55,276 nucleotides of DNA from an uncultured Clostridia bacterium (GCA_947626865.1 CANQTZ010000002.1:1-55276); one strand, 5' to 3'. Counted from the first letter of the stretch, positions 26,169 through 29,212 are shown. Notes: generated by a model not told the origin, from the sequence alone. A program made the numbers and translations.

Positions 26169-26870
26169 AACAAAATCATTAATCATTTAGTTGCAAGATA
26201 TATCCTTTACCCTGCTATCCTTCCTTGCCTTTTAGATGTTAATGTTGCAAGCAGAAAAGGTTTAGGTACAAGTGAAGGAATTAGGTTAGCTATGAATTTC
26301 CATAGAAAATGCAAAATAAAATATGGCACATATTTTATTTTAAAATGTGATATTAGCAAATTTTTTGCAAGTATAGACCATGATATATTAAAACAAAAAT
26401 TAAAAAGGAGAATTAAAGATAAAGATGCCTTAAAAATTGTGTTTGACATTATTGAAATGGAAGAGAAAGGATTAAGTATAGGTGCTATGACAAGTCAAGT
26501 GCTAGCCATCTTTTTTCTTAACGATATGAATCATTTTATAAAAGAAACTCTTAAAATACGATACTTTTTGAGGTATCAAGATGATTTCTTACTATTTCAT
26601 CCTTCTAAAAAGTATTTAAAATATTGTCTCGGTCAACTAGAAAAATTTCTAGAAAAAGAAAAATTGCAACTAAACAAAAAAACTAGAATTTATAAAAGCA
26701 CTAATACATTTATTTTTCTAGGTAGAAAACCAAATGGTAATTACGCCAAATATAGAGATATAAAAAGAAAAATAAAGAAAAACAAATATCTTTATCATAA
26801 CAATCAAATAAGACTTTCTAGCTTAGTAAGTAGTATTATTTGTTATAAAAATTTGTGTAAAAAAAGATAA
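26169..26870 (+). pseudogene. DGR-type reverse transcriptase, 5'-truncated (about 75 N-terminal residues missing)
   Basis: The open frame from 26169 reads HLVARYILYPAILPCLLDVNVASRKGLGT (RT motif 2/2a), KCDISKFFASIDH (motif 3), GLSIGAMTSQVLAIFFLN (DGR-specific SQ motif 4) and RYQDDFLLF (YxDD). Motif 1 and a credible start are absent. The first ATG, at 26292, lies after motif 2a. Confidence 0.8.
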
Positions 26871-27046
26871 TAACTATTGAAAGTTACTATCTTAAAAACA
26901 GTTCTAAAATATACTCCCCTTCGAATACTTGCACATCTACTAACAAATATATTTATCTATTTTTACTTTATAGCTAATTCCATTAACCTAGCTAAAGGAC
27001 ATAGTCTGTTTCTATATTATCTCTTATACAATCATTAATTGCATAA

Positions 27047-27165
27047 CCACAGTTTATAGAAGCTAGGACACGCACCCCATTCGCATTGTTGTTGTTGTTG
27101 TTCACATAGCGATTATCAGGATTCACGTAATACAAGTTGTTGTCGTTATTAGCAGAGCAAAGCCA
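27047..27165 (-). repeat. DGR template repeat (TR; core 27063-27165 plus IMH*-like 3' extension)
   Basis: 103-bp core homologous to 28117-28219. The minus strand is AAC/AAT-rich (encodes WLCSANNDNNLYYVNPDNRYVNNNNNNANGVRVL). It begins 5 nt after the avd stop. Confidence 0.9.
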
Positions 27166-27170
27166 TACAA

Positions 27171-27524
27171 CTATGCCCTAATATTTATACTTTTCTTCCA
27201 GCCTATTATATATTTTATAATATCATCTATTTTTTCTCCAAACTTTATATATTTTTTATAGTTTATTATCATTTTATCATAACATAGATTTAAGAGAAAA
27301 TCTAAAACCTTAATTTTAGCAATTATTCTTTCTAATAATATTTCTTTGTCTTCTATTTTACTTATATTATTAGCTTCATAGGATAATTCAAGTATATCAT
27401 AACCAATATTTCTAATTCTATTTTTTAGTTCTATGTCTTTTTTAGGAAAATTGCTTAATTCTTTATCAATATACAATATTAACTTTCTTATAAAATTAAT
27501 TACTTGAAATTTTTCTTCTTTCAT
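27171..27524 (-). CDS. avd: DGR accessory variability determinant (Avd; four-helix-bundle protein)
   Basis: 117-aa basic helical protein immediately 5' of the TR on the same strand, which is the canonical Avd size and position. Confidence 0.75.
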   Translation of the reverse strand: MKEEKFQVINFIRKLILYIDKELSNFPKKDIELKNRIRNIGYDILELSYEANNISKIEDKEILLERIIAKIKVLDFLLNLCYDKMIINYKKYIKFGEKIDDIIKYIIGWKKSINIRA

Positions 27525-27996
27525 CTATTACTTCTTCCATTTTTTGAATTATAATTTTAAAATTTTCTTTATCTATATTTTCTAACATAAAATTATTTAT
27601 ATTATCTATTCTTGTTTTATAATTAACATATATTTTGGCTTTTTTAAAAATTTTTATATAATTATTTAAATTTCTATTATCTGATATTTCATCTATTTCA
27701 TAATTATTTCTTCTATCAACTATTATATAATTCACTTTATTTTCTTCAAGTTTTGCAATTATCTTATTTAAACTATTAGATGGGAAACCACATGAACTTA
27801 TATTCTCTATTTTTTTTAATTTATATGCAAAAAAATAAGAAATAATGTAAGAATCTTTACCATACACATGAAAAAAATTCCCAACTTTTATAAAAACCAC
27901 ATCGTTTGGATGTACCTGTTTTATCGTCTTTACCATATTAATTATCCCCATTTTTTCACCATCCCAATTTTGCGCTCCTATCCAAGCGGACATCAA
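27496..27996 (-). CDS. MutS domain-I-like DGR accessory protein (MSL type)
   Basis: HPNDVVFIKVGNFFHVYGKDSYIIS...CGFPSNSLNKIIAKLEENKVNYIIVD parallels the MutS N-terminal mismatch-binding domain (FYRMGDFYE...CGVP....Y...L...G..VA). The true start is probably ATG 27951 or 27936, because the first 15 codons overlap a GC-rich hairpin. Confidence 0.65.
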   Translation of the reverse strand: MMSAWIGAQNWDGEKMGIINMVKTIKQVHPNDVVFIKVGNFFHVYGKDSYIISYFFAYKLKKIENISSCGFPSNSLNKIIAKLEENKVNYIIVDRRNNYEIDEISDNRNLNNYIKIFKKAKIYVNYKTRIDNINNFMLENIDKENFKIIIQKMEEVIDERRKISSN

Positions 27997-28006
27997 GCCC
28001 GCTCGG
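27983..28006 (-). other. GC-rich hairpin downstream of the VR-bearing gene
   Basis: CCAAGCGG (27983-27990) pairs with CCGCTCGG (27999-28006): 8-bp stem, one mismatch, 8-nt loop. It lies 22 nt past the target stop codon. No T-run follows, so it is not a canonical terminator. Confidence 0.45.
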
Positions 28007-28027
28007 TTTCTTATTTACTTATACTTC

Positions 28028-29212
28028 TTATTCTATTGTCCATTTATTATATGTGAAATTATCTTTTTCTACTTTTTCTGTTGTACTATTAAATTTGACT
28101 CCAGATTTTAGAGAAACTAGGACACGCACCCCACGCGCAACGCCGCTGCCGCCGCACACAAAGCGATGATCAGGATCCACGCAAAACAAGTTGCGGCCGT
28201 AATCGGCAGAGCAAAGCCAGTAATACATTCCATTTTCAACTATAGATATTAACTTATTAGCTGTATTTTCTGGAAAACTATCAATCTCGTATAAGTTCTC
28301 TACATTTTCATTTATATATTTTTTGTACCATGAATCTAAATCACTTTTTTTCATTGCTCTTGCACTAATTACATTTCCTTGTACATAATCACTCCAATCT
28401 CGCACATCAGATTCTTGACCCGTAACTAATGTCCCTGTCGTTTCTCCTGTCAATATTTTTTCTGAATTATAGGCATAATTAGTACCAAATGGATGATAAT
28501 ATAGCTCTGGACATCCTGACGATATTAATGTAACTGTACTTTTATCTTCTGACACATCCCATATTCTCCATCCTTCATATTTTCCAGTCCCTGCACTTCC
28601 TCCTGTTGCATTTGTATTTCTGCTTTGATCTTTTGTATATCCTCCAAATTCAAATGGATTTTCTGATGTTGGTGCTTCTTTTGTTTCTTCCCAAGTTCCT
28701 GCATCATAATTTACATAGTCTCCTATGTGCATTGCATCTTCTTTATAATTTTCTTCGTCTGGATTATTTACTCCATCATACAACTCGGCAACTGTTTTTC
28801 CTGTTCCTGTCCCTTCTTGGCTTCCTTTTGCTGTTTCTGTAATTTTTCCCGTTGTTTCTATTTTATACTCTTTTCTTTCTCCTTCATATGTCCAAGGACC
28901 ATTTTCTTCTCCCTTTAAATTAGCTTTTTTATCTTCTCCAAATTCGTTTCCTATTGCATTTTCTAAACTTGTCTTTGTTAACCCTTCTCCTAAATTATCT
29001 GATAATGCTGTTGCTACTGCTAATTTTACTCTTTCATCTTCTTCTGCATCTTTTGTCTGTTCTCCTGCTGTATTTGCCTTACTTAATATCCCATTTTCCC
29101 CTGTTAATGTCGCTATACTTACTGCAGCTAAGATTAACAAAACGATTATCGTAATTACCAATGCAATCAAAGTGATACCTTTATCTTGTCGATTTTTATT
29201 AATAATTTTCAT
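28028..29212 (-). CDS. DGR target protein: pilin-like N-terminal anchor plus C-terminal C-type-lectin-fold variable region
   Basis: The N-terminus KGITLIALVITIIVLLILAAVSIATLTGENGILSKANTA is paralogous to that of 1850-3289. The C-terminal YWLCSADYGRNLFCVDPDHRFVCGGSGVARGVRVLV is encoded by the VR. Confidence 0.85.
   Translation of the reverse strand: MKIINKNRQDKGITLIALVITIIVLLILAAVSIATLTGENGILSKANTAGEQTKDAEEDERVKLAVATALSDNLGEGLTKTSLENAIGNEFGEDKKANLKGEENGPWTYEGERKEYKIETTGKITETAKGSQEGTGTGKTVAELYDGVNNPDEENYKEDAMHIGDYVNYDAGTWEETKEAPTSENPFEFGGYTKDQSRNTNATGGSAGTGKYEGWRIWDVSEDKSTVTLISSGCPELYYHPFGTNYAYNSEKILTGETTGTLVTGQESDVRDWSDYVQGNVISARAMKKSDLDSWYKKYINENVENLYEIDSFPENTANKLISIVENGMYYWLCSADYGRNLFCVDPDHRFVCGGSGVARGVRVLVSLKSGVKFNSTTEKVEKDNFTYNKWTIE
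28101..28219 (-). repeat. DGR variable repeat (VR; core 28117-28219 plus IMH-like 3' extension)
   Basis: 24 differences from the TR over 103 bp. 23 of them fall at TR adenines on the minus strand. The VR is 61% G+C versus 43% for the TR, by direct count. Confidence 0.9.

Follow-up and report, generated by a model that had tools for sequence, protein, structure and literature searches.

Two questions are raised by the repeat-bearing cassette described here, namely whether it belongs to the diversity-generating retroelements (DGRs) and whether it can still diversify its target gene. The cassette lies in a stretch of 55,276 nucleotides from an uncultured Clostridia bacterium (GCA_947626865.1 CANQTZ010000002.1:1-55276), the whole of which is referred to below as the window. 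A preliminary description, made from the sequence alone, presented it as a DGR cassette extending from position 26169. Judged by every sequence hallmark, the region is indeed a DGR; its intactness, however, does not hold, as the reverse transcriptase (RT) is cut at codon 82. The reading that we favour, with a probability of roughly 0.8, is that of a chromosomal DGR cassette of the MSL type (Architecture D), which would have undergone retrohoming in the past and later suffered a break that removed its RT, leaving the variable repeat (VR) frozen unless an RT is provided in trans.

Table 1. Features of the cassette and its surroundings, in coordinates of the window.
Feature	Coordinates	Strand	Remarks
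Breakpoint	26171/26172		cassette rightward, DGR-unrelated sequence leftward
RT remnant	26172-26870	+	residues 82-317 of a 314-317 aa family
Spacer RNA	26876-27062	-	about 190 nt, adjoining the TR on its 3′ side; its end lies 6 nt from the stop codon of the RT
IMH*-like TR end	27047-27079	-	17 nt GC-rich and identical to the VR, then 16 nt matching 12/16
Template repeat (TR)	27063-27165	-	103 nt; 32 minus-strand adenines; 13 AAY codons in the VR frame
avd	27171-27524	-	117 aa, pI 9.3; Pfam bAvd, NCBIfam DivGenRetAVD
MSL, stand-alone MutS-domain-I (“downstream” paralogue)	27496-27996	-	Pfam MutS_I
IMH-like VR end	28101-28133	-	counterpart of 27047-27079
VR	28117-28219	-	103 nt; codes for target residues 332-365
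Target (variable protein) gene	28028-29212	-	394 aa, pI 4.7
Sigma-70-like promoter, best match	29628-29656	-	TTGACA, 17 nt, TG-TACGAT; consensus match only, upstream of the target operon

The first question is addressed by the TR and the VR, which form the longest direct repeat reported by a repeat search. At an offset of 1054 nt, a recount gave 24 mismatches in 103 positions, 23 of them at a plus-strand T of the TR (a minus-strand adenine), of which the TR contains 32; the hypergeometric probability of at least 23 out of 24 mismatches falling on 32 of 103 adenine positions is 1.1e-14. The coordinates, length, counts and translations of both repeats in the preliminary description were all reproduced, with the VR in frame in the ORF 29212-28028, and the adenine bias that it had put forward holds. 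From TR to VR, the substitutions comprise 15 A>G, five A>T and three A>C changes. Moreover, when the TR is read in the frame of the VR, 31 of its 32 adenines fall at the first or second codon position, and eight AAC and five AAT codons are found. The sole mismatch outside the adenines (27151 A vs 28205 G) fits its earlier interpretation as drift, because the change is synonymous (GCT/GCC, Ala). No second VR occurs within the 55,276-nt window.

A simple duplication of part of a gene's 3′ region, decayed under AT-biased mutation in a genome of 28% GC, could account for a TR that is more AT-rich than the VR. Such a decay, however, should involve A and T about equally on each strand, and the minus strand shows 23 A to 1 T; A-T and A-C differences are present besides the A-G ones, and the adenines, arranged as AAY codons, keep to codon positions 1 and 2. 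On its flanks the repeat also has Avd, MSL, a spacer RNA that covaries and an RT of the DGR clade, and in about 45 related loci the TR/VR mismatches again fall overwhelmingly at TR adenines. The strand asymmetry, together with this context, refutes the duplication, whose probability we regard as negligible.

At the ends of TR and VR there is, by sequence, an IMH/IMH*-like junction. A 17-nt GC-rich stretch, identical in both repeats (27063-27079, minus strand TGGGGTGCGTGTCCTAG), is followed by 16 nt beyond the TR, 27047-27062, which agree with 28101-28116 at 12 positions, as counted before; a match as good is reached by chance in 0.019% of the 16-mers between 20 and 36 kb of the window. The spacer RNA begins with these same 16 nt. 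In 27990-28125, no GC-rich inverted repeat was found after the IMH of the VR. An inverted repeat downstream of the IMH is optional and present in around 34% of DGRs, and with an IMH/IMH* pair lacking the GC-rich hairpin, the window cassette is like two thirds of the set of Wu et al. (PMC5758913).

As previously proposed, the VR is located towards the 3′ terminus of the gene for a surface protein (residues 332-365 of 394). The target starts with a hydrophobic, pilin-like segment, continues as a helical stalk and finishes with a beta-rich C-terminal domain, in which the VR lies, and among 39 homologues hypervariability occurs exactly at the VR-encoded columns. AF2 models reached a pLDDT of 86.8 for the whole protein and 93.0 for the C-terminal domain. 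The best, though weak, structural neighbours of the modelled residues 147-394 are the C-terminal domain of Lcl/DUF1566 from Legionella pneumophila (8q4e_A, the best PDB match, with E 0.34 and a TM-score of 0.49 normalised to the target) and, among viral proteins, DUF6273 (the best viral match, E 4.7e-3) and DUF1566, with C-type lectins such as CD23 and botrocetin at low rank. These matches hint weakly at a C-type-lectin-like fold for the VR domain, whose membership is unproven because all of them fall short of E 1e-3 and Pfam has no domain that hits the protein. The end of the target (...GVRVL...) recalls, as we take it, DUF1566 and CLec-type VRs.

The pilin-like anchor formerly ascribed to this protein is retained only in part. 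Its leader, KG followed by ITLIALVITIIVLLILA, matches the prepilin motif below threshold (Pfam N_methyl, E 0.0029, 17.6 bits against a cut-off of 21.2), but Ala stands at the site of Glu5, both here and in almost all of the homologues. With no conserved Glu5 and with N_methyl below its cut-off, a type IV pilin or pseudopilin is not supported as the identity of the target. The promoter listed in Table 1 is a weak match, since promoter-like sites are as numerous in the region as shuffled sequence would lead one to expect.

The gene order target, MSL, avd and TR was right in the preliminary description, and profile searches also bore out the identities that it had suggested for 27171-27524 and 27496-27996. 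The product of avd matches DivGenRetAVD (E 7.6e-11) and bAvd (E 4.6e-8) over the whole profile, in both cases under the curated cut-offs, and is 76% identical to a gene of a related locus (L001) with a precomputed PF22296 match. The start of avd and the end of the MSL gene share 29 nt. The MSL protein matches Pfam MutS_I above the curated cut-off (E 2.2e-10, 41.2 bits vs 20.6). Its ORF opens at a TTG at 27996, and relatives start at the equivalent of an ATG at 27951 (MGIINMVK..., by tblastn), which would give 151 aa; its length is 151-166 aa, and it is basic, with a pI of 9.25.

The profile of the MSL family matches residues 13-95 of E. coli MutS (E 1.8e-8). Residues G39, F41, D48, F71 and P72 are invariant, F41, the equivalent of F36 in E. 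coli MutS, being so in 44 MSL sequences, and the position equivalent to Glu38 of MutS is not conserved (H/Q/N in the downstream paralogue, I/V/L in the upstream one). A full MutS repair protein was discarded: the match to the NCBIfam MutS profile covers positions 10-86 of 793, which correspond to domain I only, and neither Pfam and NCBIfam nor the family profile revealed connector, core, clamp or ABC ATPase domains. By its profile matches, MSL is therefore the mismatch-binding domain of MutS without the ATPase. Such an accessory gene is no novelty and belongs to the already known MSL class, described as “Architecture D”, in which TR and RT can be on different strands (Wu et al. 2018, NAR 46:11, PMC5758913). 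Msl also occurs in the Bacteroides DGRs Bfr, Bth and Bun, and in Bacteroides a knockout of the host mutS increases retrohoming 5-10 fold (bioRxiv 10.1101/2024.11.15.621889). This antagonism by the host MutS provides a rationale for MSL, the putative role of which is most likely to sit on the mismatch-dense cDNA:VR heteroduplex and to block the host mismatch repair that restores the parental VR.

Beyond the TR, the cassette contains a structured spacer RNA, with one nested and one variable hairpin followed by a long 3′ helix, whose segment is 70-87% identical in about 65 loci of both architectures. RNAalifold predicted 41 pairs from an alignment of 55 sequences, 29 of them with compensatory changes; 97.6% of the cells were paired vs 85.3% in shuffles, with none of 500 shuffles reaching the observed value, and sliding the pair partners left about 50% paired. 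No Rfam family matches this RNA. In the BPP-1 element, self-primed cDNA synthesis needs a structured RNA downstream of the TR, and the priming by DGR spacer RNAs and their RNP have been described (PMC6182149; bioRxiv 10.1101/2023.10.23.563531). By analogy, the spacer RNA of the window would prime cDNA synthesis.

The second question depends on the RT. The homology proposed for it was found in profile searches (RVT_1, DGR clade), but it is partial and on the strand opposite to the TR. This orientation, with a plus-strand RT convergent with a minus-strand TR, is the native layout of this DGR family. The stump retains the motifs IGAMTSQ (26478) and YQDD (26574), that is, motif 4 with the form [LIV]GxxxSQ, a DGR-specific RT signature, and YxDD. 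The best PDB match of the RT family profile is a 328-aa reverse transcriptase (8ub7_A, E 4.8e-20), which we take to be the Bordetella bRT, ahead of group II intron (E 9.5e-11) and retron RTs, so that on motif and profile matches the stump belongs to the DGR clade. Among the 120 closest homologues, most RTs have 314-317 aa, and the window RT aligns to them from residue 82 onward; Pfam RVT_1 covers profile positions 44-202 of 205 only. What is left is the C-terminal three quarters of the protein, without the N-terminal fingers (motifs 1-2).

In blastn comparisons with around 90 related loci, nearly all alignments reaching this 5′ end of the RT remnant start at 26172, and a few at 26167-26181. 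To the left of the breakpoint lie a glycosyltransferase operon (Pfam GT2 match at 24986-26002) and the 170 nt upstream of it, none of which is related to the DGR family, and tblastn detected neither the first 81 codons of the RT nor the upstream second MSL gene anywhere in the window. The RT frame is open from 26169, with its first start codon, an ATG at 26292, corresponding to residue 123; a complete RT gene with a start codon is thus absent from the cassette, where residues 82-317 alone are present. By its sequence, the RT is truncated 5′ at codon 82, and with no start codon before residue 123 the cassette is not an intact, autonomous DGR. It cannot diversify on its own, and, if no second RT is acting in trans, the VR is the mark left by earlier retrohoming. 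Having lost the front end of its RT gene, the cassette is probably a frozen relic. Against this reading, all family-invariant residues are still present in the stump, along an uninterrupted frame of 233 codons, which suggests that the loss of the RT was recent, or that the stump is not yet decaying.

This DGR family, surveyed at about 90 loci, is common in uncultured, low-GC gut Clostridia. In intact relatives, an operon with target, MSL, avd, TR and spacer RNA is convergent with a second operon containing another MSL paralogue and the RT. No cassette near-identical to that of the window was present in any collection searched. The RT genes of the relatives show, in addition, recurrent “extra C before GGN” frameshift sites.

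The truncation could have been created by the assembly, if a chimeric join at 26171/26172 conceals a real locus with a complete MSL-RT operon. The window looks like a contig of metagenomic type, the junction sequence was found in no other assembly searched, and exact look-ups of the flanking proteins gave no other contig, all of which would be compatible with a misjoin. However, there is no compositional break, with a tetranucleotide correlation of 0.982 across the junction vs 0.983 for an internal control, and the pilin-like leader modules on both sides are 89% identical in DNA vs 74-80% to other genomes. Neither a repeat nor microhomology, the usual seeds of misjoins, is found at the junction. 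Independent 5′-truncated RTs also lie inside long contigs of relatives (L019, on a 179-kb scaffold, L029, L064, L082 and L083), and such truncations are therefore real in this DGR family. We consider an assembly artefact very unlikely.

A different objection is that the cassette is still active, as an RT-less satellite whose diversification relies on a full-length enzyme of the same family, supplied in trans from another part of the genome. All the parts other than the RT (target, MSL, avd, TR and spacer RNA) are intact, as this would require, and the conservation of the spacer RNA across the family means that a paralogous RT could recognise it. Two cassettes of the family coexist in each of at least five surveyed MAGs (L035/L074, L046/L089, L073/L084, L078/L090 and L081/L085), and Treponema has remote targets served by one RT (PMC5758913). 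Relatives with truncated RTs keep clean TR/VR pairs, with A-specific mismatches at 24/25 (L019), 25/27 (L029) and 18/20 (L034) positions; however, these footprints do not discriminate, since a recently dead element would show them too. On the other hand, tblastn found no second RT within the window, and the upstream MSL paralogue, conserved beside the RT in intact elements, was lost as well. Activity in trans seems unlikely, although it deserves some weight, and a frozen relic is the reading that we retain.

For this relic, a history can be proposed by analogy with the Bordetella phage DGR. An RNA with TR and spacer would have been bound by RT-Avd and would have acted as its own primer for reverse transcription, during which the RT would misincorporate opposite the template adenines. 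The resulting cDNA would then replace the VR, with the 3′ boundary set by the GC-rich IMH end, and some 16 AAY-type codons would be recoded in the ligand-binding face of a cell-surface protein. That the process did run in the past is evident from the 23 of 32 adenine positions that are rewritten, after which the one silent non-A difference appeared. The break at 26171/26172 would have followed through a deletion or rearrangement, which eliminated the first 81 codons of the RT together with the upstream MSL gene, joined the stump to the glycosyltransferase operon and left a presumably dead RT beside a target, MSL, avd, TR and spacer RNA that are all intact.

The BPP-1 phage element of Bordetella (mtd-avd-TR-brt) is the mechanistic prototype of this pathway, and its RT is of the same clade as that of the window (8ub7_A, E 4.8e-20). 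Common to both are Avd, adenine-directed mutagenesis together with AAY codons, an IMH that is GC-rich and closes the VR on its 3′ side, and a structured RNA downstream of the TR. BPP-1, however, acts on a phage tail-fibre gene and is colinear, whereas the window element is chromosomal and has added MSL gene(s), a convergent RT module, no hairpin after the IMH and a truncated RT, which is less than 38% identical to any INPHARED phage RT. Like the window element, the Bacteroides DGRs are located in chromosomes of gut bacteria, with Avd, Msl and an adhesin-like cell-surface target (bioRxiv 10.1101/2024.11.15.621889). They differ in phylum, the Clostridia family being known here from sequence alone, and their targets, from the pilus tip and related proteins of the surface, are Type V pilins, unlike the window target, with its type-IV-prepilin-like leader without Glu5 and its unrelated body.

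As in Architecture D, the cassette combines a small stand-alone MutS-domain-I gene with avd and has no HRDC gene, TR and RT on different strands are possible, and its phylum, the Firmicutes, is among the four that account for about 80% of the core set (PMC5758913). It departs from Architecture D in lacking the RT N-terminus, and its MSL has a pI of 9.25 vs a mean of 7.2 +/- 1.7 (PMC5758913). The two MSL paralogues per cassette seen in its intact relatives are unmentioned in the main text of PMC5758913.

The window element is, in consequence, a decayed DGR of the known MSL accessory class from uncultured gut Clostridia, and the outcome for the window is mainly a correction: a DGR of textbook pattern and of a described accessory class, with a defective RT. 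A DGR finder relying on TR/VR plus “an RT hit” would over-call this cassette as active. The family is more useful, being abundant in uncultured gut Clostridia and diversifying a cell-surface protein with a pilin-like leader; it also offers two MutS-domain-I paralogues per cassette and a spacer RNA with unusually clear covariation. These features, together with the published suppression of retrohoming by the host MutS, make it a good system for testing the function of MSL. It is conceivable, although we think it decidedly unlikely, that loss or throttling of the RT is a recurrent, selected form of pulsing, in which RT-dead but otherwise intact cassettes are kept as satellites, to be re-diversified only while a working RT of the family is available in trans, and the RT of relatives is gated at rare CGG codons by +1 frameshifting; the window would in that case show one position of an on/off switch for targeted hypermutation, operating at the level of the population, and would not be a simple relic. 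Natural “off” states for comparison are offered by the relatives, with their many independent RT lesions.

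The diversity-generating retroelement (DGR) of the window is a defective element of an already described kind, since accessory genes for a stand-alone MutS-domain-I protein (MSL) were defined by Wu et al. 2018 in 16 of 372 DGRs, always together with avd, as "Architecture D" (PMC5758913), and Msl has been reported in Bacteroides DGRs too (bioRxiv 10.1101/2024.11.15.621889). The location of the template repeat (TR) and the reverse transcriptase (RT) on different strands was likewise noted by Wu et al. 2018 (PMC5758913). What is present in the window is a footprint of adenine-specific templated rewriting and every part but a working RT, and these parts are conserved throughout the family.

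The footprint lies in a direct repeat of 103 nt with an offset of 1054 nt, formed by the TR and the variable repeat (VR) of the target gene, and our recount agrees with the preliminary description on its 24 mismatches. In 23 of them the TR carries a T on the plus strand, that is, an A on the minus (coding) strand, where the TR has 32 such positions in total; the hypergeometric probability of at least 23 of 24 mismatches falling on 32 of 103 positions is 1.1e-14. An origin of the TR through AT drift is excluded, because on any one strand drift would give as many A as T, and the observed ratio is 23 to 1. In the VR, 15 of the 23 adenines are replaced by G, 5 by T and 3 by C. The translations proposed earlier for both repeats proved exact. 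In the frame of the target ORF, 31 of the 32 TR adenines occupy codon positions 1 or 2, the TR codons include eight AAC and five AAT, and the sole difference outside the adenines is silent (GCT/GCC, both alanine). A GC-rich stretch of 17 nt, identical in TR and VR, follows 3' of the last A-to-N site, and in the next 16 nt the 12 identities previously pointed out were counted again, a level reached by 0.019% of the 16-mers of the neighbourhood. No second VR was found across the 55-kb window. In about 45 related loci, TR/VR mismatches also fall overwhelmingly at TR adenines.

Features of the window, with positions, strands and main characteristics
Feature	Position	Strand	Characteristics
ISL3-family transposase	155-1704	plus	two ORFs: zinc ribbon 155-595, HTH plus DDE 919-1704; probably a disrupted IS
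Second surface protein	1850-3289	minus	479 aa; no Pfam match
Paired ORFs of the cell-wall locus	13035-15347 and 19783-22095	minus	equal length, 770 aa
RT frame	26169-26870	plus	Pfam RVT_1 match; IGAMTSQ and YQDD motifs
Structured RNA	27062 down to 26876	minus	directly 3' of TR; 70-87% DNA identity, both layouts
TR	27063-27165	minus
avd	27171-27524	minus	117 aa, pI 9.3; full-length Avd match (NCBIfam DivGenRetAVD E 7.6e-11, Pfam bAvd E 4.6e-8)
MSL	27496-27996	minus	Pfam MutS_I E 2.2e-10, above threshold
VR	28117-28219	minus
Target	29212-28028	minus	394-aa ORF
Terminator-like hairpins	29253-29276 and 29294-29312	plus	intergenic region upstream of target operon
Microsatellite (TA)8-9	29536-29552		intergenic region (512 nt) upstream of target operon
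Spo0A-like response regulator	29725-30492	minus	receiver plus Spo0A_C; between DGR target and prophage
Prophage-like region	~32500-55276	minus

HMM searches also bear out the two accessory genes that had been proposed, a MutS-like one and avd. The Avd profiles match over their whole length with scores under the curated cut-offs, which is common in this weakly conserved family. The MSL gene starts in relatives at an ATG equivalent to window position 27951, and a profile built from 44 family members matches residues 13-95 of E. coli MutS (E 1.8e-8). This match to the MutS structure required the family profile; single-sequence PDB searches with MSL alone and Avd alone returned only noise. No MutS domain other than domain I was found in the MSL protein, where the mismatch-inserting Phe of MutS (F36; F41 in MSL) is invariant throughout the family and the Glu two residues after it is not conserved. 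The idea that in-frame stops make pseudogenes of half of the MSL genes in relatives was rejected, because the stop is the natural one and the tblastn alignment merely runs two codons past it.

The RT is of the DGR kind, but it is truncated on its 5' side. The best PDB match of the RT family profile is 8ub7_A (E 4.8e-20), a 328-aa reverse transcriptase which we take to be that of the Bordetella phage DGR, and group II intron and retron RTs are at least 9 orders of magnitude worse against the same profile. The best 120 homologues are almost always 314-317 aa long; the window RT aligns to homologues from residue 82 only, covers only positions 44-202 of the RVT_1 profile, and its earliest possible start codon, the ATG at 26292, is equivalent to residue 123. 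Among the DNA alignments of about 90 related loci, those reaching the 5' side of the RT nearly all begin at 26172 (a few at 26167-26181), and tblastn over the 55 kb recovers neither the missing N-terminus nor the gene found ahead of the RT in relatives. An inversion shifting the RT 5' end beyond the target was also rejected; tblastn finds no such sequence in the window. Fingers motifs 1-2 are indispensable in RTs, and we therefore infer that the remnant is unable to polymerise. Its loss of the 5' end is probably recent, since the stump is free of internal stops and every family-invariant residue is still there.

Left of the junction (26171/26172), an AT-rich spacer of 170 nt is followed by a family-2 glycosyltransferase gene, part of a chromosomal cell-wall polysaccharide cluster in which Obg and a tRNA synthetase of class I (Trp/Tyr type) also lie, further away. 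We argue that this junction is real, because its two sides agree in composition (tetranucleotide correlation 0.982; internal control 0.983), because the pilin-like leader modules of two genes, one on either side of it, share 89% DNA identity with each other and 74-80% with other genomes, and because comparable internal 5' truncations of the RT occur in relatives within long contigs. Exact-match scans of metagenome and viral contigs for the junction and the TR end gave zero matches, neither the junction nor the pre-truncation state being found there, and exact-sequence look-ups of the flanking glycosyltransferase and target proteins returned no record. The idea that 238-aa RT variants in the database share this breakpoint, for instance through an att site inside the RT, was rejected, because these variants keep the N-terminal part, severed by a nonsense codon or a frameshift.

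The second surface protein of the window lacks a VR, and its leader and first stalk residues are 100% identical to those of the DGR target over 39 aa (89% at the DNA level over 135 nt); identical leaders on unrelated bodies suggest a shared module, possibly a recombining one. The two ORFs of equal length in the cell-wall locus, of which at least 19783-22095 bears repeated Big_2-like modules, are possibly recent paralogues. On the right-hand side, the Spo0A-like regulator has phrog_37855 as its best PHROG and scores 143 against the NCBIfam cut-off of 200 bits for genuine Spo0A. Search matches at the edge of the prophage-like region comprise a glucosaminidase-LysM-SH3 lysin, a tail-fibre-like protein and XRE-type regulators, and its further ORFs are tail-, head- or packaging-like by size and order alone. 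There is no sign of a phage-borne cassette, because all tblastn matches of the RT family to phages are below 38% identity; blastn of window 26000-29300 against INPHARED phages gave no match, and no close relative of the DGR family was seen in phage databases.

The family was surveyed through gene tables of close relatives and tblastn over 90 related loci (here given L numbers), and its hosts are uncultured gut Clostridia MAGs, human and animal, including Clostridium sp. CAG:343, CAG:245, CAG:793 and Candidatus Scatovivens. In the convergent layout, that of the window (e.g. L001, L004, L012-L016), MSL-up and RT face target, MSL-down, avd and TR. The colinear layout (L033, L036, L040, L042, L048, L051, L055, L058, L065-68, L072, L074, L078, L080, L089) runs from target through MSL-down, avd and TR to RT, with a second MSL usually nearby on the other strand, and what distinguishes the two layouts is the inverted orientation of the RT module with respect to the TR-spacer. 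Intact members carry two MutS_I paralogues with ~20% mutual identity, one in the target/avd interval and one beside the RT. Flanks differ between loci, with an integrase/Mob_Pre element in L001 and chromosomal genes in L005, and therefore the cassette moves.

The structured RNA segment is more conserved than the flanking genes. RNAalifold on a 55-sequence alignment gave 41 pairs in three main elements, with compensatory changes in 29 pairs; 97.6% of the cells are paired, compared with 85.3% in shuffles (0/500 reach the observed value) and ~50% after sliding the partners. The window copy fits the family consensus, and an Rfam search of window 26000-29800 with E up to 1 gave no match. By position, this RNA would correspond to the Bordetella spacer RNA, which envelops bRT-Avd and primes cDNA synthesis (PMC6182149; bioRxiv 10.1101/2023.10.23.563531), and stem-loops just 3' of the TR are reported in the DGR spacer RNA literature for most Avd-containing DGRs. 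In L020 (9370-11779), the 3' third of the spacer RNA (~85 nt, 75-77% identity to the window) is repeated four more times, on both strands, downstream of an intact RT.

The pilin-like anchor attributed to the target stands only in part: its leader (KG/ITLIALVITIIVLLILA) is similar to a prepilin signal, but it has no Glu5 and falls under the Pfam N_methyl threshold. A helical stalk and a beta-rich C-terminal domain follow, and in 39 homologues hypervariability coincides exactly with the VR, between the conserved motifs YYWLxSA and GVRxLVSL. The AlphaFold models have high confidence, with pLDDT 86.8 for the whole protein and 93.0 for the C-terminal domain. Structural matches are weak: the PDB yields the C-terminal domain of Legionella Lcl (DUF1566) and C-type lectins, and the viral models yield DUF6273 and DUF1566; in Foldseek, the N-terminal helices diluted the result with the whole model, and the C-terminal domain alone gave no significant match. 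A C-type-lectin-like display scaffold for the VR is thus only plausible.

By analogy with Bordetella, RT-Avd would reverse-transcribe the self-primed TR-spacer RNA, misincorporation would occur opposite A, and the cDNA would replace the VR up to a limit set by the GC-rich end (IMH). For MSL, the most economical hypothesis is that it would occupy the mismatch-dense heteroduplex and so block its repair, because it is an isolated mismatch-binding domain that retains the intercalating Phe, and because in Bacteroides the host MutS depresses retrohoming by a factor of 5-10 (bioRxiv 10.1101/2024.11.15.621889). The window copy retrohomed in the past, after which its RT was decapitated; its VR is now most likely frozen, barring an RT that works in trans. 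Five MAGs contain two loci of the family (L035/L074, L046/L089, L073/L084, L078/L090, L081/L085), which bears on the trans-complementation of RT-defective cassettes.

Three points may be new with respect to the literature consulted: the pairing of MSL paralogues, a well-supported spacer RNA structure for the clade, and the way in which the RTs of relatives are damaged. Among the 90 loci, the RT is intact in about 50, has a nonsense codon in 5, is 5'-truncated inside the contig in 6 (window included), 3'-truncated in 4 and interrupted after residue 224 in 2, and 16 show a frameshift due to a single additional C immediately ahead of a conserved Gly codon (N-C-GGN). The additional C occurs at three sites, RT residues 59/60 (L009-11, L054, L060), 185 (L070, L075-L080, L084, L086, L088) and ~268 (L056), each time creating a CGG codon in the 0 frame, with the downstream RT intact and conserved in the +1 frame. 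On a neighbour-joining tree of RTs, the 7 carriers placed for residue 185 are scattered and polyphyletic, and the 59/60 site recurs in two distinct clades. In the window genes CGG accounts for 4 of 13,723 codons (0.29 per 1000), and only one sense codon is rarer. These sites, which may serve programmed +1 frameshifting on a hungry codon or act as an on/off switch of the RT that has arisen repeatedly, merit a study of their own. As for the two interrupted RTs, that of L028 contains an insert of ~2.6 kb (2161-4814) that encodes a remote RT (22% identity) and is probably a group II intron, and in L053 (6673-9319) the RT match resumes ~2.6 kb past residue 224, at the contig end.
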